Origin: Myxococcota bacterium
Lineage (GTDB): Bacteria > Myxococcota_A > UBA796 > CAJQPC01
Length of the DNA: 64,000 bases
Direction: 5' to 3'
Assembly (NCBI GenBank): GCA_036229005.1
Contig: JAZAMN010000057.1
Span: forward strand, 32,198 to 96,197
Every line of letters begins with the position of its first letter. The first letter of the stretch is position 1. The translations under genes and the position numbers were made by a program. Positions 10,592-62,835 of this stretch are shown here, piece after piece. The notes under the pieces are model-generated. The model saw nothing but the letters and a program-made list of their open reading frames with translations, made no database searches and had not been told where the DNA came from.

Positions 10592-10881
10592 GCGCAAGTG
10601 GCCCCCAACGCAACAAGCCACCGCGCAAGTGGGTCCCAACGCAACAAGCCACGGCGCAAGTGGGCCCCAACGCAACAAGACACCGCGCAAGTGGGTCCCA
10701 ACGCAACAAGACACAGCCAAAACACAGCCTCCGGGGGCTTCCTGGCCCTGGTCCCGCCCGCCTCTGTTGCGTTCACCCCGACTTGCGCAGCCGACTGTTG
10801 CGTTCACCCCGACTTGCGCAGCCGGTTGTTGCGTTCACCCCGACTTGCGCAGCCGACTGTTGCGTTCAGACCGACTTGCGC
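10592..10881. repeat. 31-bp-phased inverted array element, family A, copy 1
   Basis: GCGCAAGT-N7-AACGCAACA at 10592/10623/10654/10685; inverted copies at 10765/10796/10827/10858; 56-bp centre. Confidence 0.9.
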
Positions 10882-10890
10882 GCCCCAGCC

Positions 10891-11763
10891 TCAGAGCCCG
10901 CCCTTGTCGAAGCTCGGATCCGGCGTCCCGCTCAGGCATCCCAGCACCCAGGGGTAGGTGTCGGTCACGTAGTAGCCGTACTGCCCGTCCACGGTCATCC
11001 CGTTGCATTCGTCCAGGTCGCCGGCGTCCGTGAACGCGTAGTCGTCCTCGTACATGCCGTCGTAGCTACCGCCGGGGGAGTCCTCGCCGCTGGGGCGCTC
11101 TCCCTCGCGCAGCGTGTAGCCGGACACGGCCTTGCGGACGGTGCCCTCCTCGTCCACGAACCAGCTCCCGTAGATGGGGAAGCCGTCGGCGGCGAAGCCG
11201 ATCACCGGGCTGCCGTTGGCCCCGGGCTGGTCGTCGAACATGGCCTTGGGGTTGCCGTGGTAGTGGTAGCCGCCGTCCGGCTGGGTGTGCGCGTTGTGGG
11301 CGTCCGCCCCCATCTTGTGCTCGGTGCCCAGGGGCGCGACCAGCCAGTCGTCGTCCACCTGGCAGCCGATCGGCGTGTTGCCGTCAGCGTCGGCCATGGG
11401 GTCGTCGGGCTTGTAGCAGCTCGCTGAGAGCAGATCGACGGGCACCCCGTTGAGCATGATCGCGTCGTAGGACCCGTGCCCCAGCGCGGTGGGCTGCGCG
11501 GCCAGCTCGGGGTCGCGGGGGATCTCGAAGCTGCGGCTCACCTCCTGGACCTGCGTGGCGAAGTCCGCGCTCTCGTCATCGAAGTCGTGGTTGGGGATGT
11601 TGTTGGAGACCAGCACGCAGTGGTCGTCCTGGGCCTCGATGTCGACCTCGCCCAGGAAGCCCTCGTTGCGCTGCAGGTCCAGGACGCTGGAGAAGTACGA
11701 CTCGTCGTAGTCCGCACAGTCCGCGCTGCGGTTGCCCCTCAGCGCCGCAGCCCCATCCACCAC
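10891..11763 (-). CDS. YHYH domain protein (N-terminus uncertain)
   Basis: NNIPNH, AHTQPDGGYHYHG, SPVIGFAADGFPIYG, GDLDECNG..YGYYVTDTYP. Confidence 0.85.
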   Translation of the reverse strand: MVDGAAALRGNRSADCADYDESYFSSVLDLQRNEGFLGEVDIEAQDDHCVLVSNNIPNHDFDDESADFATQVQEVSRSFEIPRDPELAAQPTALGHGSYDAIMLNGVPVDLLSASCYKPDDPMADADGNTPIGCQVDDDWLVAPLGTEHKMGADAHNAHTQPDGGYHYHGNPKAMFDDQPGANGSPVIGFAADGFPIYGSWFVDEEGTVRKAVSGYTLREGERPSGEDSPGGSYDGMYEDDYAFTDAGDLDECNGMTVDGQYGYYVTDTYPWVLGCLSGTPDPSFDKGGL

Positions 11764-13193
11764 CCCAGCGCCCGCGCCGTCCCCTCACCAAGCTGCTCCC
11801 GCCGCCACGCGCTGGCCACGCGGAACAGCAGCTCGCTGCGGGTCGGGTACGGATGCACGGTCGTCGCGATCTGTGAAAGGCCCAGGCCCTGCGTCATGGC
11901 CAGGGTCAGCGGCGCCAGCAGCTCCCCCGCGTGCGGCGCCGCGATGCAGGCCCCGTGGATGCGCCCGCCCCTGTCCGCGTAGACCTCGCACAGACCCTGC
12001 TCCCCCTCGGCGCGGCCGCGATCCAGCTCCTCCAGGCGGTGGGAGAAGCAGCGCAGACCCAGCCGCTCCGCCTCCTCCGGCCCCACCCCGACCCAGGCCA
12101 GCTCCGGCTCCGTGTAGAGCACCCTGGGGATCACCAGCGCCCCCGCGTCCTTGCCGCCCGGGAACAGCGCGTTCTGCAGCACGACCCGCGCCTGGTGATC
12201 CGCCCCGTGGGTGGACCCCACCCCGATGACATCCCCGCAGGCGTACACATCCGGGTTCGTGCTGCGCAGCCGACCATCGACCACCACCCCCTGCGCGCCC
12301 ACCTGCACCCCGGCCTTGTCCGGATCGAAGTCCAGGCGAGGGGCGCGGCCCGTGGCCACCAACACCCGCTGGCACACCACCTGGGCCTGCCCCTCCACAC
12401 ACACCTCCACCGGCCCCTCTCCCGCCAGCGAGGTCACCCTGGCGCCAACCTGGATCTGTACGCCATCCCTACGGAGCTGCTCCTTCAGCACCTCGACGGC
12501 GGACATCGGCCAGTCCGGCAGGAGACGGGGTCCCCGCTCCAGGAGGTGGACCCGGGCCCCCAAGCGGCCGAAGGCCTGCGCCAGCTCACACCCCACCGCG
12601 CCTCCTCCCAGCACGACCAGGGACTCCGGGAGCGCCTCCAGCGCCCAGAGACTGTGGGTGTCCAGCGCGCGCTCGATGCCGGGGATCCGGGGTCGGGTGG
12701 GGCCCGCGCCGGTGGCGATCAGGGCCTTGGCGAAGCGCAGGGTGTGCTCCCCCACCTGCACGCGATCTCGCCCGGCAAAGCGCCCGTGCCCCAGGAACAC
12801 GTCCACGCCGGTCTCGCGCAGGCGCTCCGGGCTGTCGTGGGGGGCGATGTCCGCGCGGGTCTTGCGCGCCCGCTCCATGACCGCGGCGAAGTCGACCTGG
12901 ACCTCTGTCGCACAAACCCCCAGATGCGACAGGGAGCGGGCCCGCGCGGCGGCGTGGGCGCTGGCAAGCAGGACCTTGGAGGGGACGCAGCCCTGGTTCA
13001 GGCAGTCCCCGCCCAAGAGGGCACTCTCCACCAGCGCGACCTTGGCCCCCAGCCCCGCCGCGCCCAGGGCGGCGATCAGGCCCGCGGGGCCGCCACCCAG
13101 CACCACCAGGTTGTAGCGGGCCGCCGGCTCCGGGTTCACCCAGTCCGGGGGGCGCAAGGTCTGGCGCAGGCGCGCATCGTGGGAGCTGGGCAT
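11739..13193 (-). CDS. Class I pyridine nucleotide-disulfide oxidoreductase (Lpd/MerA-like)
   Basis: GGGPAG FAD motif, GGDCLNQGCVPSK redox Cys pair, GGGAVG, HPYPTRSE. No C-terminal Cys-Cys pair. Confidence 0.9.
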   Translation of the reverse strand: MPSSHDARLRQTLRPPDWVNPEPAARYNLVVLGGGPAGLIAALGAAGLGAKVALVESALLGGDCLNQGCVPSKVLLASAHAAARARSLSHLGVCATEVQVDFAAVMERARKTRADIAPHDSPERLRETGVDVFLGHGRFAGRDRVQVGEHTLRFAKALIATGAGPTRPRIPGIERALDTHSLWALEALPESLVVLGGGAVGCELAQAFGRLGARVHLLERGPRLLPDWPMSAVEVLKEQLRRDGVQIQVGARVTSLAGEGPVEVCVEGQAQVVCQRVLVATGRAPRLDFDPDKAGVQVGAQGVVVDGRLRSTNPDVYACGDVIGVGSTHGADHQARVVLQNALFPGGKDAGALVIPRVLYTEPELAWVGVGPEEAERLGLRCFSHRLEELDRGRAEGEQGLCEVYADRGGRIHGACIAAPHAGELLAPLTLAMTQGLGLSQIATTVHPYPTRSELLFRVASAWRREQLGEGTARALGWWMGLRR

Positions 13194-13217
13194 GTTCCTT
13201 CCCTATACGGAAGCAGA

Positions 13218-13246
13218 TTGACGCATGATAGCCCCCCGCGTAGGCT
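13218..13246 (+). promoter_or_regulatory. Sigma70-type promoter, probably leaderless
   Basis: TTGACG-N17-TAGGCT, then 7 nt to the ATG at 13254. Confidence 0.6.
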
Positions 13247-13253
13247 GAGGCCC

Positions 13254-13712
13254 ATGACCGAGCGAGACCCGCAGCTTGTCCAGGACGGCGAAGCCGCCGC
13301 CCGCGCCCTCAGTGAGCACCCCGCCGACGCGCGGCAGGAGCTCTTTGGCATCCGGGACCTGGCCAAGGAGTTCGGCATCACCCCCCGGGCCATCCGCTTC
13401 TACGAGGACAAGGGGCTGCTGGCGCCCCAGCGCGTCAACAACAGCCGGGTCTACAGCCGGAGGGAGCGGGCGCGCCTGGCGCTGATCCTCCGTGGCAAGG
13501 CCATCGGCTGCAGCCTCTCCGAGATCGCCCACTACCTGGAGCTCTACGGCGAGCAGGGCAAGGGCCGCCGCGCCCAGCTCGAGTTCGTGATCGAGCGCAC
13601 CCAGCAGGAGATCGACGCCCTGGAGACCCGCAAGGCCCACCTGGAGGCCCAGCTTGAGCGCCTGCGCTGGTACAATGAGAGCGCGCGGGGGAGCTTGGGA
13701 GAGCTGGAGTAG
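13254..13712 (+). CDS. MerR-family regulator, LiuR-like
   Basis: FGIRDLAKEFGITPRAIRFYEDKGLLAPQR..RVYSRRERARLALILRGKAIGCSLSEI. A LiuR-type site precedes the carboxylase operon. Confidence 0.85.
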   Translation: MTERDPQLVQDGEAAARALSEHPADARQELFGIRDLAKEFGITPRAIRFYEDKGLLAPQRVNNSRVYSRRERARLALILRGKAIGCSLSEIAHYLELYGEQGKGRRAQLEFVIERTQQEIDALETRKAHLEAQLERLRWYNESARGSLGELE

Positions 13713-13734
13713 CGGCTGGACGTCACAGCGGCGG

Positions 13735-13982
13735 GCGCAAGTTGGGCTGAACGCAACAGCGGCGGGCGCAAGTCGGGCTGAACGCAACAGCGGCGGGCGC
13801 AAGTCGGGCTGAACGCAACAGCGGCGGGCGCAAGTCGGGCTGAACGCGACAATGCCGGGCTCAGCGGGGCCGAGTTCGGTGGCTTCTTGGCTCCGATGTT
13901 GCGTTCAGAGGCACTTGCGCAGCCCCGTGTTGCGTTCACAGGCACTTGCGCAGCCCCGTGTTGCGTTCACGGGCACTTGCGC
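13735..13982. repeat. 31-bp-phased inverted array element, family A, copy 2
   Basis: GCGCAAGT-N7-AACGCAACA at 13735/13766/13797/13828; inverted at 13897/13928/13959; 45-bp centre; lies between convergent genes. Confidence 0.9.
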
Positions 13983-13983
13983 C

Positions 13984-14802
13984 CTACTCCACCTGGGCAT
14001 TCAACTCCGTCACCACCTCGAACACCTCCCCAATCTGTGCGAAGTCCACCAGGATGAGCTGCGGGCTGCGCCCGATGGCCTCGCACTGGGCGATGCGGTC
14101 CCAGAGCACCTGGGCGGTGTTGGCCTGCGCGGCGAGCTCTTCGCTGGCCAAGGGGTCGGTCAGGAAGTGGGCCATGTAGGTGTAGCTCTGGTCCTCCCCG
14201 CCGCGTCGGAAGCCGCAGTCGAAATCGTCGACCGTCTCGTAGGCGTAGTCGGTCTCCCAGACCTGCGCGTTGATGTCCCCGTACCAGTCGGGGTCGCCCC
14301 CCTCGCGGTCCGTCCAGACCACCAGGCGCTGGCCGCTGTCGATCATCTGTTGGAGGGTGGGCCAGGGCTCCGCCGGGTCCCGCGTGGCGACGTGATCGAT
14401 CAGCCCGGAGGCCTCGAACGCGCCCACCATCTGCTCGGCGGAGATGTAGGCCTCGAAGGTCAGGGACAGGACCTGGTCCGGGTTGGCGTCCAGCCACGCA
14501 GACAGCTCCGAAAGGACCTCCACCAGAGGCCTGGAGCCCAGCGAGCAGTATCCGTGGCAGGTGAGCAGCGCGCCCAGCTCTTCGTAGACATCCAGGTTCA
14601 ACGCCCGGACTCCGCTGTCGAGCTGCTCGAGCATGTCCAGGTTCTGGTTGGGCGGCTTGAAGTCCCAGCCAGGGCTGCTCATGGAGTTGTGGGTGCCCAC
14701 GACCACGACCTGATCGAAGGGCCGCGCGCAGTGTTCAGCGGCGCCGTTGCAGGAGGGCGGCTGGATGGTCTCGGGGGCGCAGGCCAGAAAGAGCAGGAGC
14801 AT
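13984..14802 (-). CDS. PI-PLC X-domain / PLC-like phosphodiesterase lipoprotein
   Basis: MLLLFLAC; GTHNSMS, NQNLDMLEQLDSGVRALNLD, LTCHG, WLDANPDQVLSLTFE. TACGCT lies 6 nt upstream of the ATG. Confidence 0.85.
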   Translation of the reverse strand: MLLLFLACAPETIQPPSCNGAAEHCARPFDQVVVVGTHNSMSSPGWDFKPPNQNLDMLEQLDSGVRALNLDVYEELGALLTCHGYCSLGSRPLVEVLSELSAWLDANPDQVLSLTFEAYISAEQMVGAFEASGLIDHVATRDPAEPWPTLQQMIDSGQRLVVWTDREGGDPDWYGDINAQVWETDYAYETVDDFDCGFRRGGEDQSYTYMAHFLTDPLASEELAAQANTAQVLWDRIAQCEAIGRSPQLILVDFAQIGEVFEVVTELNAQVE

Positions 14803-14931
14803 CCTGCGAGCGTAGAACAGCGCCCCGCAGGACCCAAGCGACACTTGCAGGTTTACGGATTCCCGCGGCATGACACCCTCTGGTTGACATTGCCGCTTCA
14901 AGCGGCAACGCTGAGAGCCGAGGGATGTCCT

Positions 14932-15747
14932 ATGTTCCACCTGATCCTGCTTGCCTGCACCACCGAGCCCGCCGACTCGGAGACCGACTGCTTTGACGGC
15001 GTCGACGAGGACCGCGACGGCCTGATGGACTGCGAGGACGCCGACTGCGCCGACGCCTGGGCGTGTACCGAGAGCGACTGCTCGGACGGCTCGGACAACG
15101 ACGGGGACGGCCTCGCTGACTGCGACGACGACGACTGCCTGGCGCGGCAGGAGTGCGGCCTGGAGCGGGAGCTGGTGCTCAGTAGCGCGCAGCTCTACCG
15201 CACGGAGACCCACGGCCGGCTCAAGGACGGAGATATCGAACAATTGAGCACGCGGTACGCCGCCACCCTTGCCGACCTGGAGGGCAGCATTCGCTACTCC
15301 AAGGTCCCCGGGGCCGCCCTGTCCACTGCGAGCCAGGTGGGAAGCTGTAGCTTCCACTTTGACCGTCTGGAGCTGGGCTTCAACACCAGCAGCTTCGCGA
15401 TGCAGCACAGCTTCACCGAGCCCTCCAGCTCTGGGCTCGTGCTGGGTAGTGGCTGCGAGGGACTGAGCGCCGAGGACCTGTTCCCGCTCCAGAAGCAGCT
15501 CCACTACCTGGACCGGGATCCCCTCCGCTCCTACGGCTTCATCGGGCATGGGGTGGGCGAGATCTGGGCGCAGTCCTCCACCGCCGTCGTCGTGCCCTGG
15601 GTCTCCGGTTCGGAAGAGATCGGGCGCACCACCACCAGCGACGGCGCGGGCTCCGGCAGCAGCTATCTGGGCAGCTCGGTCCAGGTGATCGAGTTCAGCG
15701 GGGAGGTGTCCGGGAGAGAGCCGCTGGTGTGGACGAAGACGGAGTAG
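14932..15747 (+). CDS. Lipoprotein with Cys/Asp-rich Ca-binding-type repeats
   Basis: MFHLILLAC; CFDGVDEDRDGLMDCEDADC and CSDGSDNDGDGLADCDDDDC. Confidence 0.75.
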   Translation: MFHLILLACTTEPADSETDCFDGVDEDRDGLMDCEDADCADAWACTESDCSDGSDNDGDGLADCDDDDCLARQECGLERELVLSSAQLYRTETHGRLKDGDIEQLSTRYAATLADLEGSIRYSKVPGAALSTASQVGSCSFHFDRLELGFNTSSFAMQHSFTEPSSSGLVLGSGCEGLSAEDLFPLQKQLHYLDRDPLRSYGFIGHGVGEIWAQSSTAVVVPWVSGSEEIGRTTTSDGAGSGSSYLGSSVQVIEFSGEVSGREPLVWTKTE

Positions 15748-15812
15748 GGTCAAGCGCGTGGTCAGGGGGGAACGGTGGTGGCGGGCTGACCGAGCCCAAG
15801 CACCGCTGCGAG

Positions 15813-16081
15813 GGGCATCGCCACCTGAACGCCCGGTATCGCCGGGCATCGGCACCTGAATGCCCGGTATTGCCGGGCATCGGCACCTGAACGCCCGCCC
15901 CTTCCGAGCATCAACACCTGAACGCCCGGTCTTTCCGAGCATCGGCACTTGAATGCCCGATTTCGCAGGTCATCGGAACCTCAACGCCCAGGTTCTGGTG
16001 CCAAAGCCGCGCTGAGGCGGGATCTGGCGGGCGTTCGGACCCAGATGCTCCCCGGAGTCGTGCGTTTGCCCCGGGATGCCC
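15813..16081. repeat. 31-bp-phased inverted array element, family D
   Basis: Six direct units of about GGGCATCG-N7-AACGCCCGG starting at 15813 with period 31; two inverted degenerate units at 16027 and 16058; 35-bp centre. Confidence 0.8.
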
Positions 16082-16147
16082 TCCTGCGCGTGGCACACGG
16101 GGACGTACGGCAGTGGGTGCTGACGGACCGGAATGGGCAGTCGACGC

Positions 16148-16840
16148 TCAGAAGCTGCCTGCCAGGCCCAGGGCGGGCTGGCCGTCGACGACGGTGACCA
16201 TGGGCTCCACCGTGAAGTGCATCAGAATCCGGTGCTCGGTGGTGGCTTCCCGAGGCCCGCCGGGGGCGAGCTGGAGCATCTGCTCGATCTGGATGACCGG
16301 AGCGGCGATCCAGAAGAGGGTGGCGACGCAGACACCACCAAAGCCCAGCAAAGAGGCCGCTTGGGGGGCCACGTTGTAGAGGAGTGCCGCGCCTGCGACG
16401 CTGAAGCTGGCCACGGCCACACCGGAGACCAGCCAGCGTGCTCCCGCAGAGGGGAGGTCGGTGTCCAGATGGTTGTAGGCGCGCAGGCCCGAGATGGTGG
16501 CCACACCCAGTCCGCCAACGACACCCACCTCACCGGCAAACACCGCAGTGAATCCGACCAGGGCGGCTGCGGTCCCTGCCACGGGAAAGGGCTCAATGAG
16601 CGCCGCACCTATGAGCCCTACGCCGAGGCCCCCGAACACGACCGGCAGCGACCACAGAACCGTTCGCTCCGCGAGCTGCGCCCGGCGCAGGAACTTCTCG
16701 AAGTCCAGCAGCTCAGGGGGCGAGGGCGCCAATACCTCGGGGCTGGGGGCCGCCTCGACCGAGTTCGGGGCTTCGGCGGCGTGCGCGGAGAGGGTCATGG
16801 CGAGAGCGAGGATCACTGCCAGAGCATACGCTTGAACCAC
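16148..16840 (-). CDS. Hypothetical membrane/exported protein (start uncertain)
   Basis: Signal-like N-terminus (AHA/AE), several Gly-rich hydrophobic segments, C-terminal PALGLAGSF. Confidence 0.6.
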   Translation of the reverse strand: MVQAYALAVILALAMTLSAHAAEAPNSVEAAPSPEVLAPSPPELLDFEKFLRRAQLAERTVLWSLPVVFGGLGVGLIGAALIEPFPVAGTAAALVGFTAVFAGEVGVVGGLGVATISGLRAYNHLDTDLPSAGARWLVSGVAVASFSVAGAALLYNVAPQAASLLGFGGVCVATLFWIAAPVIQIEQMLQLAPGGPREATTEHRILMHFTVEPMVTVVDGQPALGLAGSF

Positions 16841-16934
16841 CCGGACCAGGCAGTACGTAAATGTGGTGGGCGGAGACCTGAGGGCCACCGAAATCTGAGC
16901 GCCCCTGCCGCGTAGCCCTCCCCAGAGGAGCGCC

Positions 16935-18573: not shown

Positions 18574-18653
18574 GGGAACCTCTTGAAGGCAGACAGCTGC
18601 TGGCCCGTCGCGGTTCCGGCTGAACTAGCGACTCCCCCGGGTCGAAGGCCCCG

Positions 18654-44111: not shown

Positions 44112-44285
44112 TGGGGTCTCCATGTGTGCACTCAGGAGAACCCGCAGGCGCCGGGGTGGCGACGGCGAAGATGTGACCCTGTGTGACGGCGGGCTCAGGG
44201 CTGAGCCGGCAGGCACCGGGTTGGGTTGGGCCTGAATGGAGCCGGGCTTGGGGCTTGGGTTGGCCTGAAGGCCCCTCTGAACCCT

Positions 44286-44511
44286 GGCTACGGGGTGTCA
44301 ATGAGCGCTGTTCTGAGGCTACGCCCCACCGGTGAGCGCTGGAGCGACCGATCTGGGCTGGGAGCGCGCCTGATGGCCCTTTTCCGGGCGATTTTGGGCA
44401 CTTTTGGGGGGTCTGGGAGGGGAAAAGCGCTCACCGGTCAGGCGTAGCCTCAGCGCGTCGCTCATTCAGCCCCGGTAGCCAGGGGTGGGCGCTCACTGGG
44501 AGCGCTTAGCC
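44286..44511. repeat. 31-bp-phased inverted array element, family C, copy 1
   Basis: GGCTACG-N9-TGAGCG at 44286/44317; inverted at 44428/44459/44490; 89-bp centre. Confidence 0.85.
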
Positions 44512-46475
44512 CCACCCACTCGCTCCTCGAGCGCCCGCCGCTGCGTGCTCAACAACCCCTCCCCCAGGGAGTCCAGGGCCGCCTGCTGCCGAACCTTCCA
44601 GGGCTCACCGCCGGGCATCTGGGCCAGCACGGCGCAGGCCAAGGCCTGCTCCGGGCACCGGCGCATCGCCATCTCCTCCACCAGCGAGGTGCGGCGGTCC
44701 AGCCCCGCACGCAGCAGCGCCAGCGCCCGAAGCTGCGCGAGCGCCGGGGGCAGCGCATGGGGGACCCGCGCGACCAGCGCTGCCACGTGCGCAGGATCGG
44801 AGCTCCACATCGCCAGCTCCAGGGTGGCCTCGGTGACCACGGAGACCTCACCGACCTCAGCGAGCCGGTCCAGGGCCTCCTGGGCCTCCGACAGGGGGAG
44901 CGCCCCCCCCTCCAGCAGGCTGCAGGCCCGGTTGAACGCCGAGCGAAGGGCCATGTGCGGGCGGCCCGTGGCCCGGTGGACCTCGACCGCGCGCCCAAAG
45001 GCCTCGGCGGCCTCCTCCCAGCGCCCGCAGGCGCGCTCCACCTCGGCGCGGGTGTCCCAGGCATAGGCCAGTCGCGCGCCGGGATGCTCCAGCCCGCGCG
45101 CCAGGTTCAGCGCCTCGCTGGCCTCGCGGCGGGCCTGGCCCAGCTCCCCCTGGCGGCGCAGACAGTGACTCCGGTTGGCCCGCGCCAGCGACTCCCAGTC
45201 CGCGCGCCCCAGCTCACCGAACAGCAGCGCCGCCTCTCCAAAGCGCTTGCCCGCAGCTTCGACCCGCCCCAGTCGCTGCAGATCTCCACCCAGGTTGTTC
45301 AGCGCCGCGGCCGACGCCAGCAGCTCACCCTGCTCCCGGGCCAGACGAAGCGCCTCCCGGTGATGCTCCACCGCAGACTCCAGCGCCCCTCGCTTGCCCG
45401 CGATCGCCCCCAGCGTGGCGTGCGCGATGCGGCGCGCCCACGGGTCGCCCGTGCGGGAGGCCTCCTCCAGGTGGGGCTCCGCCTCCTGCAGCGCACCGCT
45501 CAAGAACAGCACCTGCCCCAGCACCGGCTGGACCAGCGCCACCAGGGTCTCCAGTCCGTGCTCCCGCGCCGTGCGCAGCGCCTCTTCGGCGGCGTCCTGG
45601 GCCTCGTCGAAGGCCCCCCGGGTCAGGCAGGCCTTGCCTCGGCCCAGAGCCGCCAGACACACCGCCTCTGGGTCCTGCGTCCGCAGCGCCAAGCCCTCGA
45701 GCCAAGCCTGCCCCGCGTCGGGATCGGCCTCCGCCCAGGCCAGCGCCAGGCGCCGCCGAAGCCCCAGGCTCGCCGCAGCCTGCGCAGCCAGCGAGAGGCG
45801 CCCCGCCTTCTCCCAGGCCAGCGCCGCGCAGTCCCCCTGACCCGCCGCCTCCCAGAGGGCCGCCGCGGAAGCCGGATCACTCTGCTCCCAGGCCCGAGCC
45901 ACCCGCGCCTGCAGCCCCGCGAGCTCCAGCGGGCGGAGGGTCACCGCCGGGAGCTCCTGCTCCAGCGCCGCCCCGAGCGCAGCCGGGTCGCACTCCAGGA
46001 CCCGGGCGAGCACCTCCAGCGGGGGCTCACACACCTCCAGGATCCGGGCCAGACGCCGCCGGAGATCCTGCGTCTGCTCCTGCCGAAGCAGCGAGTCCAG
46101 CCGGAGTTCATGCCGGGAGAGCAGATCGTCCATCGCGACGGTCGTGCCCAGCAGCTCCTCGCAGAAGGGCAGATCTGTGCCGGTGTCCGAGGGCTCCGGG
46201 GGCAAGATGGTGGGGTCGATCACCTGGAGGTGGGCCTCACTCACCTCGAGCCAAGACTCCGATCCCGCGAGCTGCCGGAGCTGGTAGATGGCTTGCCGCA
46301 GGTTGCGCAGCCGACCGGGACCCCAGAGCAGCTCGGCGAGCTCCTCCCGGCGCATGGGGCGGGCCTCCAGCGCCAGCGCGACCAGCAGACAGCGGGCCTT
46401 GTGGGAGCGGAGCTGCAGCGCGTGCTCCCCCCAGGCGAGCTGGAGGGGGCCGTGGAGGACCAGGGTGAGGGACAT
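44493..46475 (-). CDS. SARP/AfsR-like wHTH-TPR transcriptional regulator
   Basis: LHGPLQL..KARCLLVALAL..REELAELLW..NLRQAIYQLR followed by MalT-like TPRs (AAALNNLG). Confidence 0.8.
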   Translation of the reverse strand: MSLTLVLHGPLQLAWGEHALQLRSHKARCLLVALALEARPMRREELAELLWGPGRLRNLRQAIYQLRQLAGSESWLEVSEAHLQVIDPTILPPEPSDTGTDLPFCEELLGTTVAMDDLLSRHELRLDSLLRQEQTQDLRRRLARILEVCEPPLEVLARVLECDPAALGAALEQELPAVTLRPLELAGLQARVARAWEQSDPASAAALWEAAGQGDCAALAWEKAGRLSLAAQAAASLGLRRRLALAWAEADPDAGQAWLEGLALRTQDPEAVCLAALGRGKACLTRGAFDEAQDAAEEALRTAREHGLETLVALVQPVLGQVLFLSGALQEAEPHLEEASRTGDPWARRIAHATLGAIAGKRGALESAVEHHREALRLAREQGELLASAAALNNLGGDLQRLGRVEAAGKRFGEAALLFGELGRADWESLARANRSHCLRRQGELGQARREASEALNLARGLEHPGARLAYAWDTRAEVERACGRWEEAAEAFGRAVEVHRATGRPHMALRSAFNRACSLLEGGALPLSEAQEALDRLAEVGEVSVVTEATLELAMWSSDPAHVAALVARVPHALPPALAQLRALALLRAGLDRRTSLVEEMAMRRCPEQALACAVLAQMPGGEPWKVRQQAALDSLGEGLLSTQRRALEERVGGAKRSQ

Positions 46476-51143: not shown

Positions 51144-51527
51144 ATGTTCCAAGGCATCGACCACTACGTGATCTTCGTGACCGATCTGGCTGCCTCGCGC
51201 GCCTGGTACGAGCGCTTGGGCCTGCTCTACGCCCACGGCGGGGAGCACGGGCACTTCTTCTCCCTGCCCGCCGGCGGTCTGCTCATGCTCCACCCAGCCA
51301 AGGACGGCCCCGCCGGCAGCATCCCCCAGCTCTACCTCAGCGTCGGGGACGTCCACGCCGCGCTCACCCAGCACCGTCAGGCCGGCATGGAAGCCTTCTC
51401 CGAGAACGGGAGCGGCGCGCTGCCGGCGCAGACCCCGTGGGGCAGCACCGAGTACAACCTGCGGGACCCGGATGGGCACGTCTGGGGAATCGTGCAGGCA
51501 CGCGGCGGAGCTACGCCCTCCGAGTGA
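51144..51527 (+). CDS. VOC/glyoxalase family protein
   Basis: IDHYVIFVTDLAASRAWYE..TPWG..RDPDGH; RBS AGGAGG. Confidence 0.88.
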   Translation: MFQGIDHYVIFVTDLAASRAWYERLGLLYAHGGEHGHFFSLPAGGLLMLHPAKDGPAGSIPQLYLSVGDVHAALTQHRQAGMEAFSENGSGALPAQTPWGSTEYNLRDPDGHVWGIVQARGGATPSE

Positions 51528-51785
51528 GCGAGGGGCTGAGGCTACGCCCCCTGAGTGAGCGACTTTCTGAGGCTACGCCCCACCGGTGAGCGCTTGGGCC
51601 ACCGATCCGCCCGTCCCAGCGCCCCCGAGGCCCGAAAAACAGCGGCTACGGCCCGCGGGTGAGCGATTCTCCGACCCAGCGCCGCAAAACGGTGGCCCGA
51701 TCGCTCACTGAGCCCCCGTAGCCTCAAGGGAGCGCTCACCCAGACCCCGTAGCCACAAGGCGGCGCTCACTCAGACCCCGTAGCC
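51509..51785. repeat. 31-bp-phased inverted array element, family C, copy 2
   Basis: Motif at 51509/51540/51571 and 51644; inverted at 51702/51733/51764. First unit supplies the VOC stop codon. Confidence 0.85.
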
Positions 51786-51856
51786 GTCCCCTCCAGCCCG
51801 CCACCCCCGCAATATTCTCGCCCCGACAACGTCAGAGGGACCCAACCGGAGCCTCC

Positions 51857-53121: not shown

Positions 53122-53245
53122 GCGCCGATTGTCCCAGAAAGCGGACAGCGCTCCCCAATCTCGGCACCTGCTCGCAGACTTTTCGGGACATAGGGTTGAA
53201 CCCGAACGGGGCCGCCTGCCGCCCCGAATCCACTGCGAGGAATGC

Positions 53246-54328: not shown

Positions 54329-54366
54329 GGGCGACCGGGTGCGGCGTGGCGGGCTAAGGCTCCGTC

Positions 54367-56898: not shown

Positions 56899-56929
56899 CT
56901 GGGCCTGACCGTGTGCGAAACTCCCGGCC

Positions 56930-57448
56930 ATGCTCGCTCTGCTCCTGGCCCTCTCCACCGCCCACGCCACCCCTGACTGGACCTACCCCGAGCGGTCCTG
57001 GACCGTCAGCGTGGACCCGCTGACCCTGGCCCTGGGCTTCACCCACCTGCAGGTCGAGCGAGTGGTGGGCCCCCACTGGTCGGTCTACGGCAGCCCCCAC
57101 CTCTTCGTCTTCCCCAGCCCCTTGCTGGCCGAGCTCCAGCAGCCATTCCGCGGCCTGGGGGCCGAGGCCGGCGTCCGCTACTTCTTCGACGACCACGCCC
57201 CCACCGGCTGCTGGGTCATGGCGCGCGGCGTGCTCGCCCACCTCAAGACCACCGAGGGCGCGGACACCCCAGGACTCACCTCAGCCGGCGGCTACGGCAG
57301 CGTGCTGGTGGGCTACACCGCCATCCTGGGCGAGCACCTGGTGCTCTCGGGCGGCGCCGGCGCGCAGTACCTGCGCTACCAGGTCGATGGGATGGGGGTG
57401 CTTGGGCCGGCGCCGGCGCTGCATACGAATGTTGGGTGGGCGTTCTGA
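56930..57448 (+). CDS. Small outer-membrane beta-barrel protein (DUF3575-like)
   Basis: Signal peptide ending AHA, GVRYFF, terminal NVGWAF. Confidence 0.7.
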   Translation: MLALLLALSTAHATPDWTYPERSWTVSVDPLTLALGFTHLQVERVVGPHWSVYGSPHLFVFPSPLLAELQQPFRGLGAEAGVRYFFDDHAPTGCWVMARGVLAHLKTTEGADTPGLTSAGGYGSVLVGYTAILGEHLVLSGGAGAQYLRYQVDGMGVLGPAPALHTNVGWAF

Positions 57449-57454
57449 GGGAGT

Positions 57455-57679
57455 GGGGTTCCGGGTATCGGGTATCGGGGGTCAGGGGTCAGGGGTGTGC
57501 GCGGCGACTGGCGACCGGGGACCGGCAACCGCCGATGACGCCGGGCCGGGCTCGAGGCGCTGGTGGCAGCCGACTTGGGGGGGGCGTCTCGGGGAGGGTC
57601 CGGCACTGCGTGCGGGCCACGGAGGCGCGGTCGCAGGATGGGGTTCCGGGTATCGGGTATCGGGTATCGGGTATCGGGT
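57455..57679. repeat. Partial copy of the ~238-bp repeat bounded by (GGGTATC)n heptamers
   Basis: 57492-57645 matches the unit at 58591 onward; heptamer runs on both sides. Confidence 0.85.
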
Positions 57680-57731
57680 AGGCGGAGACGCCGTCGTCGG
57701 AGGCCGCGGGCCGGAGCGATAGCGTTTCCCG

Positions 57732-58593
57732 CCCCGTTAGGTTCAGTCGGCCCGGCCAGCGGACAGGTGGGTTCAGCCATCGCCAGCAAGTGACAGTGTG
57801 GTCGTGGTGTTCGGGCTGCTCGGAGTGTCTCGGGCTGAACCCTGGTTGTTTCTGGACTTTGAGTTCTGTCCGGTCGGTATTTGGGGGCTTGCCTGCCGTT
57901 TCGGGGAACCGTCCAGCTATGGAGTTCTTCGTGGGTGGCTGGCGCCCAGCAGGCTAGGAAGGAGTGCCCCGGTCGCCGGTGTCCCGTTTCACGCGAGGTC
58001 GTTGACCAGCTGCAGAACGGCTGCAAAGAAGTCTTTGCGGCGGGTGGCGACAATGACGCGGTCCCCGTCTCCAACGTAGGAGATGGCGCCCAGTTGATTC
58101 AGGTGGTCCCAGAAAGCCGCCTGAAGCGGTCGCAACCAGTCGAGGACTCCAGTCTCCCAGGTTGGATCGAACGTAGATTCCAGCGTGCTTGGGGATTCTA
58201 GGTTGAACGTGGTGTACGTCACGAATCGGTTCGGAGGCGGAGCCAGTGGTGTTTCGTCGCCGGGGATGAAGTAGTACTCGTCATCGTGACTGGAGGGGAT
58301 GTTTGCAAGCTCCGATGGATTTCGATGGAGCAGACCGCCACCTGCCTGAACCCAACCCTCCGCTGCATCTCTCGACGACAAGGTCGGGGCACTGCAATGA
58401 AGGGTCGCGAGCCAGAGCGCTTGCTCTGGGTGAAAGCGCAGCGCGAGGTCGACTGTCCTACGGATAGGGAGGGTGGTCACCAGCCACGAGTAGTCGCCGT
58501 GCTGGCCAGTGAAGATGCGGTCATCCCAGCTCATTGCCTGTGATCCTCGATGTTGGCGAGTACAAAGTGTAGGGCCGATTGAACCTAACGGGG
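57732..58593. mobile_element. Inverted-repeat-bounded low-GC segment with one passenger gene
   Basis: 22-bp inverted repeats CCCCGTTAGGTTCAGTCGGCCC / GGGCCGATTGAACCTAACGGGG (1 mismatch); interior visibly lower in GC; no transposase. Confidence 0.55.
57989..58534 (-). CDS. Hypothetical protein with atypical codon usage
   Basis: MSWDDRIFTGQHGDYSWL...; upstream GAGG; 181 aa open frame inside the IR-bounded segment. Confidence 0.65.
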   Translation of the reverse strand: MSWDDRIFTGQHGDYSWLVTTLPIRRTVDLALRFHPEQALWLATLHCSAPTLSSRDAAEGWVQAGGGLLHRNPSELANIPSSHDDEYYFIPGDETPLAPPPNRFVTYTTFNLESPSTLESTFDPTWETGVLDWLRPLQAAFWDHLNQLGAISYVGDGDRVIVATRRKDFFAAVLQLVNDLA

Positions 58594-59547
58594 GTGTGCG
58601 CGGCGACAGGCGACCGGGGACCGGCAACCGCCGATGACGCCGGGCCGGGCTCGAGGCGCTGGTGGCAGCCGACTTGGGGGGCGTCTCGGGGAGGGCCCGG
58701 CACTGCGTGCGGGCCACGGAGGCGCCGGTCCCCGGATGGAGTGCCGGGTTCGGCCAGGAGCGCACGCCTCGGAGAGGAGCGGCGTGATGACTGAGACCTG
58801 AGACCCGATACCTGACCCCCGACGCTGAGCCCCCCTCACGGCGACAGGCGACCGGGGACCGGCAACCGCCGATGACGCACTGCCGGGCTCCCGCGTTGGT
58901 GGCAGCCGACTTGGGGGGGCGTCTCGGGGTGGGCCCGGCACCGCGTGCGGGCCACGGAGGCGCGGTCGCAGGATGGGGTTCCGGGTTCGGCCGGGAGAGC
59001 ACGCCTCGGACAGGAGCGGCGTGATGACTGAGACCCGAGACCCGATACCTGCCCCCCGACGCTGAGCCCCCTCACGGCGACAGGCGACCGGGGACCGGCA
59101 ACCGCCGATGACGCCGGGCCAGGCCGAGGCGCTGGTGGCAGCCGACTTGGGGGGGCGTCTCGGGGAGGGCCCGGCACTGCGTGCGGGCCACGGGAGCGCC
59201 GGTCCCCGGATGGAGTTTCGGGTTCGGCCAGGAGAGCACGCCTCGGAGAGGAGCGGCGTGATGACTGAGACCTGAGACCCGATACCTGACCCCCGACGCT
59301 GAGCCCCCCTCACGGCGACTGGCGACCGGGGACCGGCAACCTCCGATGACGCCGGGCCGGGCTCGAGGCGCTGGTGGCAGCCGACTTGGGGGGACGCCTT
59401 GGGGAGGGCCCGGCACTGCGTGCGGGGCACGGAGGCGCCGGTCCCCGGATGGAGTGCCGGGTTCGGCCGGGAGCGCACGCCTCGGAGAGGAGCGGCGTGA
59501 TGACTGAGACCCGAGACCTGAGACCTGAAACCTGAGACCTGAGACCC
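58591..59547. repeat. Four tandem ~238-bp repeats with GAGACCY/GATACCT heptamers
   Basis: Unit anchor cggcgac(a/t)ggcgaccggggaccggcaac at 58601, 58839, 59075, 59313. Confidence 0.92.
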
Positions 59548-59597
59548 AAGCCCCCAAAGCGAGCCGCAACCCCTCCGTCGCATTAAACCTACCCCAC

Positions 59598-60053
59598 TTG
59601 CGACCGGAGGCCCCCCTGAGCATCGAGCACACCCGCCTGGAGATGCGTGAGCGCCTGCGCGAGCTGGGCCTGCGGGCGACCAGTCCCCGGCTGCAGGTCC
59701 TGTGTGCCCTGCACCAGCACGCGGGGCCACTCTCGCACGAGGAGCTCACCGAGCGCCTGGGCGCCAGCGCCCTGGACCGGGCGACGCTCTACCGGATCCT
59801 CTCGCAGCTCTCCGAGAAGGGCCTGCTCAAGCGCATGGACCTCGGAGACAAGGTCTGGCGCTACGAGCTGCTGGATCACTGCCGCCGCATCTCCGACGAC
59901 CACGCCCACTTCCTGTGCACCGACTGCGGCGCGGTCACCTGCCTGCCCGAGCTCGAGCTGCGCGCCGCCAAGGGCTCCCTGCCCGCCCAGCTCCAGGGCG
60001 CCGAGCTGCACCTCAAGGTGACGGGCCGCTGCGCGGACTGCGTGGCGCAGTGA
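59598..60053 (+). CDS. Fur-family transcriptional regulator
   Basis: GLRATSPR, DRATLYRIL, HAHFLCTDCG, GRCADC. Start may be the ATG at 59643. Confidence 0.9.
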   Translation: MRPEAPLSIEHTRLEMRERLRELGLRATSPRLQVLCALHQHAGPLSHEELTERLGASALDRATLYRILSQLSEKGLLKRMDLGDKVWRYELLDHCRRISDDHAHFLCTDCGAVTCLPELELRAAKGSLPAQLQGAELHLKVTGRCADCVAQ

Positions 60054-60622
60054 GCCACCCCTTTGACCACGGCCCCAGCCTGCTGCTGGACAAGCCGCTG
60101 TGCATCACCGGGTTCATGGGCGCACGGGTGGACGCCACCGCCAAGGCGATCGCCGCCCTCTCCGGGCTGCCGGTGCTGGAGCTGGACCGCCAGATCGAAC
60201 ACGACAGCGGCAAGTCCATCGCCCACCTGGTCCTCCGTGAAGGCCAGGACAAGCGCCGACTCCTGGAGCGCGCCGCGCTGGACAAGGCCCTGAGCGGGCG
60301 CCCGCGCGTGATCGCCCTGGGGGACGGTGCGCTGCTCGATCCGCGCAGCGCCGTGGCGGTCAGCCAGCGCGCCCGGCTGGTCTACCTGGAGTGGAGCATC
60401 ATCGAGCTCAGCGCGGCCGTGCGGGAGCGCCTGGCCGAGAGCCCGGGCCGCTACCCCGAGCTCCCCGGTGCCGACCACATCAGCGCCCTGGGCCTGCAGC
60501 CCCTGCTCCAGGAGCGGCTGCCCGGCTACCTGCGCGCCGACCTCAGCGTGCCCGGCAAGGGGCGGCCGCCCTGGGCGCTGGCGCGGGAGATCCTGGCGTG
60601 GCTGGAGCCCCAGCTCGCCTGA
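60050..60622 (+). CDS. Shikimate kinase-like protein with degenerate P-loop
   Basis: ITGFMGARVD (canonical GxMGxGKS), LDRQIE..GKSI, VIALGDG, ERLPGYLRAD. Confidence 0.75.
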   Translation: MSHPFDHGPSLLLDKPLCITGFMGARVDATAKAIAALSGLPVLELDRQIEHDSGKSIAHLVLREGQDKRRLLERAALDKALSGRPRVIALGDGALLDPRSAVAVSQRARLVYLEWSIIELSAAVRERLAESPGRYPELPGADHISALGLQPLLQERLPGYLRADLSVPGKGRPPWALAREILAWLEPQLA

Positions 60623-60624
60623 AC

Positions 60625-61749
60625 TCACGCCTTCGGCGCGAACAGCCCCACAGGCTCTGAGACACCCTTCACCGCGACCCGAGCGACCTCCCGCCAGCTC
60701 TGGAACGCGAGCTGCGCGATGTCCTGACTGGCCAGCACGGGCTCGCCCAGCGTCGAGCACTGGCTCTCCACCCGCGCCGCCAGGTTCACCGCCGGCCCGA
60801 TGACCGTGAAGTCCAGGCGCCCCGGCGAGCCGATGTTGCCGTAGGACACCTCGCCCAGGTGCAGGCCCACGCCCATCCGGATGCGGGGCTCGCCGCCTCG
60901 GGCGTCCAGGCGCACCTGCAGGTCCTGAGCGGCGGAGAGGGCCCGATGTGCGGCCTCGCCGTCGTCGTCACCGTCCGAGGGGAACACCGCGAGCACGCCG
61001 TCTCCCATGAACTTGAGCACCTCGCCGCCGTGGTCCTCGACCACGCCCACCACGCGCTCGAAGGCGTCATTGAGCAGCCCCAGCAGCGCGTCCCGGGGCA
61101 GGGACTCGGAGAGCTGCGTGAACCCGCGGACATCCGAAAACCAGACCACGGCGCGGAGGGTCTCGCCATCTCCTCGCTTGACCTGTCCGTGAAAGACGCG
61201 TTTGCCCGCATTCCGACCCAGGTAGGTGCGCAGCAGTGTGTAGGTGACCAGATCTGCTGCCCTCGGCTCCAGGACCGTCGTGAGGACCGGCATCACACCC
61301 CGGAACAGGGCCACGTGCTCCTGGGTGAAGGCCTCGCGGGTGCTGAAGGTCAGGCCGCCCGCCCACACGCCGCGGAAGTGCACGGGCAGGGCGAACTGCT
61401 CGCGGTAGCCGCGGCCAAAGAGCGCCTCCAGGTCGGGCATGTCCGGCGCGGAGCCCACCTTGAACCAGGTCTCCGGCGCCCCGTGGCGCAGGCGCAGGAT
61501 GGGGCTGTCCCGCTGGGCCAGGTGGTCGAAGCGGGCGTAGGACATGGACGATTCGCGCACCTCGTCCCCCTCGCAGACCCAGAAGAAGGCGGCCGCCTGG
61601 GGGTGCAGCACCTTGGTGCCGAACCAGAAGCGGTCCACCGGCGCGTGGCGCCGGAGCTGCTGGGCGAATGCACCGACCACCTCGCGGACGGTGGGGAGCA
61701 TGCGGCCGTGGTCGAGCAGCCAGGCGGTCAGGTCCTCGGTGGGTGTCAT
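60625..61749 (-). CDS. Class III adenylate/guanylate cyclase with N-terminal GAF-like domain
   Basis: FSDVRGFT, KFMGDGVLAVF, GNIGSPGRLDFTVIGPAVNLAARVE. TATTCT lies 6 nt upstream of the ATG. Confidence 0.92.
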   Translation of the reverse strand: MTPTEDLTAWLLDHGRMLPTVREVVGAFAQQLRRHAPVDRFWFGTKVLHPQAAAFFWVCEGDEVRESSMSYARFDHLAQRDSPILRLRHGAPETWFKVGSAPDMPDLEALFGRGYREQFALPVHFRGVWAGGLTFSTREAFTQEHVALFRGVMPVLTTVLEPRAADLVTYTLLRTYLGRNAGKRVFHGQVKRGDGETLRAVVWFSDVRGFTQLSESLPRDALLGLLNDAFERVVGVVEDHGGEVLKFMGDGVLAVFPSDGDDDGEAAHRALSAAQDLQVRLDARGGEPRIRMGVGLHLGEVSYGNIGSPGRLDFTVIGPAVNLAARVESQCSTLGEPVLASQDIAQLAFQSWREVARVAVKGVSEPVGLFAPKA

Positions 61750-61766
61750 GGGGGGAGAATAATTAT

Positions 61767-62140
61767 TGTATGGGGGTCTCGCGACCCCCCTGAACCCCGG
61801 CGGAGCCGGGGTCACCCCCCGCGGGCCTTCCGGGGGGACAGAAGCGGAAGCAACCCTCGGCGCGTCGGCGCGGCTGCGCCGCTTCTTGGGCTTTGTCGGG
61901 TTGCTCCCAGCCCCCCTACAGGCCGGGCTGCAGGCGCAGGTTTGCGCGGGGTGTTTTTTGTATGGGGGTCTCGCGACCCCCCTGAACCCCGGCGGAGCCG
62001 GGGTCACCCCCCGCGGGGAGTTCGATCGGACGGGTACGAGGCGTTCGGCCCTGCGCGTCGGCGCGGCTGCGCCGCTTCTTGGGCTTGAGCCGATCGCCTC
62101 GGCCGACCGCCCTCCCGTGCAGGCGAGGGTCTACGCCGCG
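61767..62140. repeat. Two ~192-bp tandem units containing REP-like double hairpins
   Basis: TGTATGGGGGTCTCGCGACCCCCCTGAACCCCGGCGGAGCCGGGGTCACCCCCCGCGGG at 61767 and 61959; second shared block at 61861 and 62054. Confidence 0.85.
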
Positions 62141-62170
62141 CCCCCGCGGAGCCTGCGGCCGGTCATGAGC

Positions 62171-62408
62171 GCGCAACCCCAGCTGAATGCACCCACTCGC
62201 TGCGCAACCCCAGCCGAGTGCACCAACTCGCTGCGCAACCCCAGCCGAATGCACCAACTCGCTGCGCAACCCCAGCCGAGTGCACCACCAGGCACCGATC
62301 TGGGGCCCAGAAGGGGGCTCCCTGGTGCATTCGCCCCGGGTTGGGCCCGTCCACGGTGCATTCGCCCCGGGTTGCGCCCACCCGTGGTGCATTCACCCCG
62401 GGTTGCGC
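62171..62408. repeat. 31-bp-phased inverted array element, family B
   Basis: GCGCAACC-N7-ARTGCACCA at 62171/62202/62233/62264; inverted at 62323/62354/62385; 35-bp centre. Confidence 0.88.
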
Positions 62409-62457
62409 CCCTGCTGTGCACGTCTTACGCCTGTGCAGGCGTTAGACCGAACTCCCA

Positions 62458-62566
62458 GGCTGCAGGCGCAGGTTTGCGCGCTGCAACCTCCCAGTGGACT
62501 GGGTCGAAGCCCTCGGTAGACCGACCTCCTCGGCTGCAGACGCAGGTCTGCGCGCTGCAACCTCCC
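62458..62566. repeat. Dispersed repeat GGCTGCAGRCGCAGGTYTGCGCGCTGCAACCTCCC
   Basis: Two copies 74 bp apart (62458, 62532) plus a partial copy near 61927. Confidence 0.7.
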
Positions 62567-62609
62567 TATGAGCCAGGCCAGTCGCCTCGACAGACCGAAC
62601 TCCACCTGC

Positions 62610-62835
62610 GGCTACGGGCTCCCAATGAGCGCCCCCCCTTGGCTACGGGGCCTGAGTGAGCGATGCGCCGAGGCTACGCCCCACCGGTGAGCGCTCTTTG
62701 CGGCAGAAGGGCGCCCAAACCGGTGGTTCTGGCCCCAAAGAGGCCCCTCAGGACCTCCCAGACGCCAAATCGGTGGCCCGAACGCTCACCGGTGGGCCGT
62801 AGCCAAAAGAAAGCGCTCACTCGGCCCCCGTAGCC
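62610..62835. repeat. 31-bp-phased inverted array element, family C, copy 3
   Basis: GGCTACG-N9-TGAGCG at 62610/62641/62672; inverted at 62783/62814; 89-bp centre. Confidence 0.87.

Follow-up and report, generated by a model that had tools for sequence, protein, structure and literature searches.

We found that seven intergenic elements in a 64,000-nucleotide stretch of a Myxococcota bacterium genome (assembly GCA_036229005.1, contig JAZAMN010000057.1, positions 32,198 to 96,197 of the forward strand; hereafter the window) belong to a superfamily of ~260-bp non-coding interspersed elements in an order of uncultured Myxococcota-like bacteria. The elements are built of two inverted arms of 31-bp units around a centre whose length is quantised in turns of the double helix. 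On balance, we think that they are probably helically phased scaffolds for bound protein that resemble MITEs (miniature transposable elements with inverted repeats). The source genome, G000 (the window is G000:C57:32198-96197), has an assembly of 6.4 Mb in 74 contigs, with ~70% G+C and 94% completeness, and the metagenome runs that contain the window sequence are marine and seawater samples. In this genome we detect at least 118 two-armed elements in five motif families, with a median length of 259 bp, which together make up 0.48% of the genome.

The unit comprises a half-motif of 8 bp (H1), 6 variable bp, a second half-motif of 9 bp (H2), and 8 variable bp. Counted by left arm, there are 43 elements of family C (GGCTACG/GAGTGAGCG), 29 of family A (GCGCAAGT/GAACGCAAC), 18 of family B (GGGCATCS/GAACGCCCG), 15 of family A' (GCGCAACC/GARTGCACC), and 13 of family C' (AGCTACG/CAGTGCGCG); hybrid combinations of H1 and H2 types also exist. 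A scan with the five H1 by five H2 types at fixed offset, accepting at least 14 out of 17 matching positions, returned 1229 units. Neighbouring units on the same strand and no more than 200 bp apart are spaced by exactly 31 bp in 517 out of 558 cases (21 are at 62 bp and five at 30 bp). The reversed genome gave 497 units and 84 pairs at 31 bp, but is not a clean null, because reversed arrays remain periodic; the period spectrum of Tandem Repeats Finder (TRF) is the better control. Here, 203 of the 1853 rows have period 31, whereas the nearby periods 29, 30, 32, and 33 have six, 44, zero, and 27 rows, respectively. Merging the period-31 rows yields 192 arrays, including a few coding or low-complexity repeats of no relation to the elements. 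Arms hold two to eight head-to-tail units, and 230 arms have at least two detected units. Among the 133 neighbouring pairs of arms within 400 bp, 118 are in the order plus then minus, six minus then plus, and nine on the same strand. Seven multi-unit arms are unpaired, mostly where the partner has a variant motif or the contig ends, and all strong single units found in a genome scan for high-scoring single units belong to arrays. The layout that the initial annotation had read from the window, with direct units at an exact 31-bp period, a centre, and inverted units at the same period, is thus that of the genome at large.

The length of the centre, measured from innermost H2 to innermost H2, is quantised as 16 + 10.4k bp. 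In a Rayleigh scan of periods from 5 to 20 bp, the best period is 10.40 bp (R = 0.953) for the 105 elements with at least two units detected in each arm, values that are not independent since elements of family C partly owe their centre class to common descent. All but one of these centres (104 out of 105) fall within 0.15 turn of the series. Each family alone peaks at 10.40-10.50 bp (R = 0.95-0.99), with a phase common to all, and none of 1000 random sets of lengths reached the value observed for the centres of families A, A', and B (n = 56). The initial annotation had noticed steps of ~10.5 bp among the centres of a few window elements; these steps hold genome-wide, and the lengths are not randomly distributed. 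We observe 13 elements with centres of 16-17 bp, four of 26-27 bp, 18 of 36-38 bp, 14 of 46-48 bp, two of 58 bp, four of 68-69 bp, three of 78-79 bp, 31 of 88-90 bp, 20 of 99-100 bp, and seven of 109 to 132 bp, with single outliers at 7 and 203 bp. An inner unit too degenerate to be detected adds 31 bp to the centre and leaves the phase unchanged; the residues of centre lengths modulo 31 (6, 16, and 26-27) are one turn apart from each other.

The same helical register is visible in base composition. Between families A and B, the centres show no sequence relationship. A/T Fourier peaks lie at 10.5 bp in the centres of family C (power 2.49 vs. 0.23 in shuffled sequence), 10.7 bp in those of A/A' (0.80 vs. 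0.22), and 10.3 bp in those of B (1.02 vs. 0.23). A/T-rich positions recur every 10.3-10.5 bp in one register through arms and centre: the modulation in the centre continues the A/T positions of the unit (5-6, 14-18, and 24-27) with no break in phase, the mean phase difference between arm and centre is 0 degrees (R = 0.87, n = 89), and the phase in the arms is alike in all five families (-156 to -177 degrees). Runs of GGG or CCC lie between the A/T-rich positions; between H1 and H2 they are found in 60-70% of units in four of the five families (31-36% expected), with no excess in family A' (0.33 vs. 0.28). GGG and CCC are used interchangeably, and the A/T modulation is continuous with the arms; both are properties of double-stranded DNA. 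Phased A/T tracts confer curvature or directional bendability. Taken together, the phasing argues that the functional object would be duplex DNA held in a fixed helical register. Eight of the 14 occurrences of the motif CAAGYNNYTGAAATC in the genome are near the midpoint of long centres of family A/A'/B elements, and the other six, located elsewhere, have an extended form (...TGAAATCACG). The motif has the look of a binding site for a DNA-binding factor and resembles a site of IHF type, and its position in long centres would fit a site for a bending protein.

Conservation is concentrated in the half-motifs. Between loci of one family, motif identity is 0.89-0.96, and spacer identity is 0.41-0.46 in four families and 0.58 in C' (composition expectation, 0.315). 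The two arms of one element have motifs that are 0.90 identical and spacers that are 0.31 identical. Within an arm, spacer identity rises to 0.68-0.73 in families A, A', B, and C', indicating local homogenisation; in family C it is 0.44, about the level seen between loci, with the motifs and the 31-bp phase intact. The initial annotation had set conserved half-motifs against diverged cores and linkers, which we confirm for all families, and had implied that spacers are alike within an arm, which applies to four families but not to C. It had also held that the arms are not simple hairpin complements: identity between the spacers of mirror units in opposite arms is 0.26-0.41, which is also the range for non-mirror pairs, and the arms are therefore not complementary beyond the motifs. 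When 19 arms of two species are aligned without gaps, G3, C4, A16, and G19 are invariant in the first unit; G, C, and G are invariant in units 2 and 3, and the A exceeds 90% in unit 2. H1 and H2 are not complementary to each other and single units are not palindromic. The folding energy of the consensus of a single 31-nt unit equals that of shuffles in all five families (A, -6.8 vs. -7.0 kcal/mol; C, -7.7 vs. -8.1 kcal/mol).

Other genomes of the order share the architecture with other motifs. Allowing up to two mismatches, the family-A pattern has 158 matches in G000 and none in 40 relatives, three of them of the same genus; an exact two-unit family-A pattern gave no match in a search of genome contigs. 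A degenerate three-unit pattern matches 268 times in G000 (89 in the reversed control), 25 times in G002, six in G001, and seven in G044, which is from another family of the same order; it has no match in G003 and none or one in each of the other 56 genomes. The reversed controls of genomes other than G000 gave no matches, except for two in one genome. The two-armed period-31 elements of G001 and G002 carry, for example, GGCATCGG/GAACGCAAC and GGCTACG/GAGTGCAGC, and those of G044, for example, GGGAGCC/GGAACATCTG. Their centres follow the same series: those of G001/G002 (16, 26, 57, 57, 57, and 88 bp) are on it in six out of six cases, and those of G044 (5-6 bp, or 16 - 10.4) lie one turn below 16. 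In a further genome, G136, the centre measures 26 bp in nine cases, 78 bp in two, 88 bp in two, and 80 and 108 bp in one each, 13 out of 15 being on the series, after removal of four values of 7 that are artefacts of both-strand matches within one arm. At E <= 0.001, 16 out of the 151 genomes scanned from the order are matched by a sequence-only covariance model of four units, a lower bound since the model missed G044. Several matches, with a best E <1e-5, are found in nine of the 151 (G000, G001, G002, G021, G039, G077, G116, G136, and G150), which represent four families of the order. That one rule recurs with other motifs in other species, together with the single A/T phase through arms and centre, supports the proposal of the initial annotation that these are phased arrays to which protein would bind.

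Evidence of copying comes mainly from two of these genomes. G136, assembled in 40 contigs reaching 1 Mb, has a subfamily of 17 near-full-length copies whose identities are graded between 100% and 75%. Nine copies, when aligned, show sharp common borders, a constant 4+2 units, and substitutions concentrated in the spacers, and the outermost units form inverted ends, as the terminal inverted repeats of a MITE do. Such a copy pattern is that of a non-autonomous element that proliferates. A pair of copies in G044, set in unrelated flanks, has 94.8% identity over 267 bp, and the family is present at at least eight loci. In G000, homology between copies likewise stops at the element borders, at an identity of 68-76%, and closer pairs are local or segmental duplicates only. 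The turnover of motifs between species and the graded copy families favour a mobile life style that would be REP/RAYT-like or MITE-like.

The placement of the elements in the source genome is strongly biased. Genes were called crudely, as long open reading frames (ORFs) with high third-position G+C (87.5% of the genome coding). Out of 118 elements, 16 lie at contig edges and eight have their midpoint in a called ORF, probably because of over-extended starts, leaving 94 that could be placed. Convergent genes flank 49 of the 94, although only 18% of intergenic spaces are convergent (P = 4e-14, binomial); 41 lie between tandem genes (64% of spaces) and four between divergent genes (18%). Measured from the edge of an element, the median distance is 19 bp to a neighbouring 3' end, with 59% no more than 30 bp away, and 91 bp to a 5' end. 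High copy number, extragenic location, and 3'-end placement are all as in REP/BIME-REPIN sequences.

The three elements that we checked are present in strains from three other studies, represented by metagenome contigs ~98% identical to the window. In the strain of run X3, the left arm of element 3 (see table) is exactly 31 bp shorter (15897 joined to 15935, with six other letters). In the same strain, the 56 bp directly after the right arm of this element (window 16082-16139) give way to 494 different letters, so that a structural difference adjoins the element. Contig breaks within or next to arrays are frequent, and contigs of four runs break inside them; no joint in the contigs of these four runs skips an element, and the joints of 20-25 letters that we considered look like cross-matches between repeats.

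From this geometry we infer how the elements might work. The 31-bp unit is three turns of B-DNA and presents one asymmetric two-part site (H1 plus H2), which would be bound by one asymmetric sequence-specific protein, a monomer with two DNA-binding modules and with paralogues specific to each family. Bound copies would then all share a single face of the duplex, itself curved or readily bent. A centre bent intrinsically by its phased A/T tracts, or by a protein at its own site, could bring the two arms together, so that the outcome would be a single cooperative complex that is bridged, synapsed, or wrapped. The elements would spread as non-autonomous MITE-like copies, by analogy with REP/RAYT; the binder would most likely be a transposase or recombinase of the elements or a domesticated descendant of one, and copies would persist mainly just 3' of stop codons. 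A bolder version, which we offer tentatively and with considerable doubt, is that asymmetric protein paralogues, each with its own H1/H2 code, zip or wrap the two inverted arrays into a defined DNA loop at gene ends. Such a loop might position a supercoil or plectoneme or block convergent transcription, sites and proteins co-evolving and spreading as a mobile, domesticated system unrelated to REP/RAYT.

Several results weigh against a mobile, protein-bound element. No binding protein was identified: clustering of the 403 flanking genes revealed no enriched protein family, and Y1_Tnp (PF01797) has no match in the five genomes searched (G000, G001, G002, G003, and G044, which are 75-95% complete), with matches in six out of 14 reference genomes as control. 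The initial annotation had suggested looking for copies that enclose or adjoin a transposase or recombinase gene; no direct-then-inverted pair of arms 0.4-6 kb apart encloses a gene, and no rve, IS110, or Y1 gene is linked to the elements. Matches to rve (PF00665) occur only at two places in G000 and at one in G003, the genome without arrays, and neither rve nor IS110 genes track the distribution of arrays. The absence of transposases is weak evidence, because such assemblies often lack insertion sequences. Two individual candidates were rejected. The rve copy on contig C60 of G000 belongs to an IS3-like gene of two ORFs, whose end lies ~430 bp short of the closest element. In G044, two overlapping ORFs (locus L010, G044:C92, 3225-5023) match DruA/DUF4338 (E = 4e-31) and, weakly, DDE_Tnp_1, and probably represent a single IS4-like transposase gene with a frameshift; the gap from its end to the two-armed element that follows is ~50 bp, but the gene has no homologue in G000. 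Seven ORFs between clustered G136 elements gave no Pfam matches. As to insertion, no target-site duplication is apparent by eye at the sharp borders of the G044 copies or of the nine aligned G136 copies, nor in G000, where borders are blurred by partial units. No empty site or insertion polymorphism was seen among the three elements compared across strains; the three closest relatives do not keep the gene order on the gyrA side, and same-genus DNA is 65-75% identical with fragmented synteny. G000 has no near-identical copies at unlinked loci that would mark recent mobility in this genome. The suggestion of a non-autonomous mobile element made in the initial annotation gains support from the graded-identity copies and sharp borders in G044 and G136. 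Three further points, the partly inherited centre classes of family C, the contrast of in-place motif conservation with saturated spacers, and the folding of single strands, also count against the mobile, protein-bound reading, the last two being the starting points of other explanations.

Strong conservation of motifs in place amid saturated spacers is unlike the neutral decay of a selfish MITE and leans toward a host-level function. The elements might accordingly be architectural or topological elements of the host, kept by selection at each locus and mobile in origin only, where a nucleoid protein would wrap or bridge the DNA so as to pin the tip of a plectoneme, absorb supercoils between convergent units, or act as a two-sided roadblock. 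Motifs at 0.89-0.96 identity with near-random spacers, even within the arms of family C, would indicate purifying selection in place, and the location of 52% of elements between convergent genes with edges so close to stop codons, their stable retention, locus for locus, in strains of three other studies, and the lack of any transposase in the searches above all suit such a role. So does the A/T and GGG/CCC modulation, which at 10.3-10.5 bp is continuous over ~260 bp and is like that of wrapping-prone sequences; nucleosome-positioning and curved DNA has comparable modulation favouring wrapping. We regard this explanation as a serious rival, though on balance rather unlikely. Five motif families in one genome, differing sets within the genus, and none found in G003 fit co-evolution of element and protein better than a conserved host factor; the distribution within the order is patchy (several strong matches in only nine of 151 genomes), the graded-identity copy families of G136 and G044 look like proliferation, and no candidate nucleoid protein was identified.

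An element acting as RNA is, in our estimation, improbable. In this case the element would be transcribed from the genes beside it, and base-pairing of its arms at H1 and H2 would produce a long hairpin with interruptions that serves as a bidirectional terminator or as a REP-like stabiliser of mRNA 3' ends. Single-stranded elements do fold as long imperfect hairpins far more stable than shuffles (-139.6 and -147.5 kcal/mol; z = -7.2 and -7.8), they lie directly 3' of stop codons and between convergent genes, and their symmetry suits either direction of transcription. Yet 14 of the 31 nt would be unpaired, the spacers of mirror units do not resemble each other more than those of non-mirror units do, hybrid half-motifs are not accompanied by compensatory changes, and the window has no Rfam match. 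Moreover, a hairpin gives no reason for a loop quantised at 10.4 nt or for A/T modulation in phase with the arms, and the interchangeability of GGG and CCC is a property of the duplex. Finally, local tandem duplication or slippage combined with assembly artefact, without any function, would account for the differences of whole units between strains and the many contigs that break in or beside arrays, and the homogeneity within arms of families A, A', B, and C' shows that slippage or unequal exchange is active. As a complete explanation it is very hard to credit: the same elements recur in contigs of independent runs from other studies and in a 40-contig genome whose contigs reach 1 Mb, and the inverted arms (118 out of 133 pairs), motif-only conservation, and quantised centres are left unexplained.

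The MITE-like, phased scaffold that we prefer resembles several known systems but differs from each that we compared. The initial annotation had not recognised the elements as REP, BIME, ERIC, or CRISPR, and we agree: no described family matched, the units are not palindromic, no RAYT gene was found in the five genomes searched, and the layout is not that of CRISPR. Searching both strands of the 64-kb window against Rfam 15 at the gathering threshold gave no matches. A decayed coding repeat is ruled out because a 31-bp unit cannot be a coding repeat. None of the outcomes that the initial annotation had named as refuting its reading was observed. CRISPR arrays have direct repeats of 23-50 bp and unique spacers of similar length in one orientation, and were rejected since the units here follow one another without a gap at 31 bp, vary only over stretches of 6 and 8 bp, and form two inverted arms of two to eight units. 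The REP unit is an imperfect palindrome of 20-40 bp that forms a stem-loop, its cognate RAYT gene is usually flanked by repeats, and in RIP/BIME-1 an IHF site lies between inverted REPs. Like REP/BIME/REPIN sequences, the present elements are high-copy, species-specific, and extragenic, with several families per genome, inverted copies round a short centre, a bending-protein-like site in some classes, 3'-end and convergent placement, and long persistence with a conserved core. They differ in that the unit, with a folding energy equal to shuffles, is not a palindromic stem-loop, in the two to eight head-to-tail 31-bp units of each arm around a centre quantised in helical turns, and in the lack of a Y1/RAYT gene in the five genomes tested. 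This comparison draws partly on PMC3184786 and PMC2817692.

Bacterial MITEs such as Correia, ERIC, Nezha, and Chunjie are short and non-coding with inverted ends (PMC3184786), and the present elements are like them in being multi-copy, sharply bordered, of graded identity, intergenic, and foldable as RNA. No target-site duplication was seen by eye, and no parent insertion sequence with the same ends was found. Unlike those of MITEs, the ends of the elements are phased arrays of two-part sites and not a single terminal inverted repeat, their motifs are conserved while the rest is saturated, and they obey a 10.4-bp length rule. The ends of Mu (attL/attR), Tn7, Tn402/Tn5053, and IS21 carry several direct, asymmetric, two-part transposase sites, with the two ends inverted. 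Such ends must synapse, and helical phase would matter in a very short element; their sites, however, are ~19-23 bp and irregularly spaced, whereas here the array is strictly 31 bp, no rve-type transposase tracks it, and no element encloses genes. Lrp/AsnC operators and the ParR-parC iterons form arrays that are regular or of ~30-32 bp, with cooperative binding on one face and DNA that is wrapped or U-shaped. Lrp sites are palindromic and parC sites all direct, both unlike inverted two-arm arrays, and they are found at promoters or on plasmids, in contrast to more than 100 dispersed copies at gene 3' ends; neither is known to form mobile copy families. We take Mu/Tn7 ends, Lrp-type phasing, parC, and RIP/BIME-1 as analogies, not memberships. 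No description of such elements appears in the limited collection of literature searched, including the available part of PMC3184786.

All seven elements of the initial annotation were recovered by reading the sequence and by the motif scan, which detected no further element in the window (table below). TRF reports nine period-31 arrays (79-96% matches) in five of the seven, the two weakest C elements (44285 and 62609) being recovered by the motif scan alone.

Table. The seven two-armed elements of the window (window coordinates; + and - are strands)
Element	Family (H1, H2)	Span	Left arm	Centre	Right arm	Neighbouring genes
1	A (GCGCAAGT, GAACGCAAC)	10592-10881	10592-10707 (to last H2), +, 4 units	58 bp between inner H2 motifs	10766-10881, -, 4 units	GntR-family gene (9853-10545, -); YHYH gene (10891-11763, -)
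2	A	13735-13982	13735-13850, 4 units	47 bp	13898-13982, -, 3 units	begins ~20 bp past stop of MerR-type ORF 11931-13712
3	B (GGGCATCS, GAACGCCCG)	15813-16081	15813-15959, 5-6 units (TRF, 5.7 copies)	68 bp	16028-16081, -, 2 units	
4	C (GGCTACG, GAGTGAGCG/CAATGAGCG)	44285-44512	+, 2 units	89 bp; A/T tracts phased at ~10.5 bp	44428-44512, -, 3 units	
5	C	51508-51786	51508-51592, +, 3 units	109 bp between outer arms; inner unit 51643-51665	51702-51786, -, 3 units	glyoxalase-family gene on one side, AhpC/TSA gene on the other
6	A' (GCGCAACC, GARTGCACC)	62171-62408	62171-62286, +, 4 units	68 bp; 37 bp with variant inner unit counted	62324/62355-62408, -, 2-3 units	
7	C	62609-62836	62609-62693, +, 3 units	89 bp; phased A/T tracts; inner inverted repeat (CCACCGATC-type) adjoins innermost H2 motifs	62783-62836, -, 2 units	

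Some of these elements have relatives or repeats close by. Element 6 shares its centre and flanking sequence with two further A' elements (C57:100189-100426 and 103041-103278) located 6-9 kb downstream, just past the window. One pair among these elements is 95% identical over 173 bp in inverted orientation, pointing to a segmental duplication that is local and partly inverted. The stretch between elements 6 and 7 (62443-62603) is filled by a tandem repeat of 74 bp (x2.2, 78% matches). Elsewhere in the genome, four family-C elements (C22:83830, C29:34181, C58:6356, and C71:242993) share ~45 bp beyond the right arm, starting CCCCGGCTTCAACAGG, which may be another repeat or a preferred neighbour.

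The window also contains repeats of other periods. At 2799-2939, a 6/12/30-bp periodic repeat (CCGACG-type, 76-84% matches) lies within a long ORF and is probably a low-complexity coding repeat, acidic or Ser/Thr-rich. Heptamer arrays at 57462-57680 and 58601-59546 consist of CGGGTAT (x4.9), CGGCGAC (x4.9), and CTGAGAC (x3.6-6.1), several of them within a tandem repeat of 237 bp at 58601-59528 (x3.9, 91% matches). In the whole genome, TRF reports 78 period-7 rows, mostly ACCGGCG (30) and ACCCGAT (25); heptamer runs also adjoin some 31-bp elements, and G136 has a CGTGGAC array (x21.7). Heptamer direct repeats have been described in other bacteria (PMC4679880).

Perhaps the most general feature of these elements is what they keep constant. 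The gene-end arrays differ in motif from family to family and from species to species; the conserved property is the geometry of the duplex, namely, a three-turn unit, a centre of whole turns, and one A/T phase. Hairpins are the usual explanation for the interspersed repeats of bacteria (REP, BIME, MITEs). The present elements offer instead rare and direct sequence evidence for what would be a large cooperative assembly of protein and DNA, and bear on the synapsis of short mobile elements or on the organisation of DNA at convergent gene ends. They also supply a rule by which relatives can be searched for: a period of 31 bp and a phase of 16 + 10.4k. If family-specific paralogues do zip or wrap the inverted arrays as sketched above, these bacteria would possess a new kind of genome-encoded nucleoprotein scaffold.

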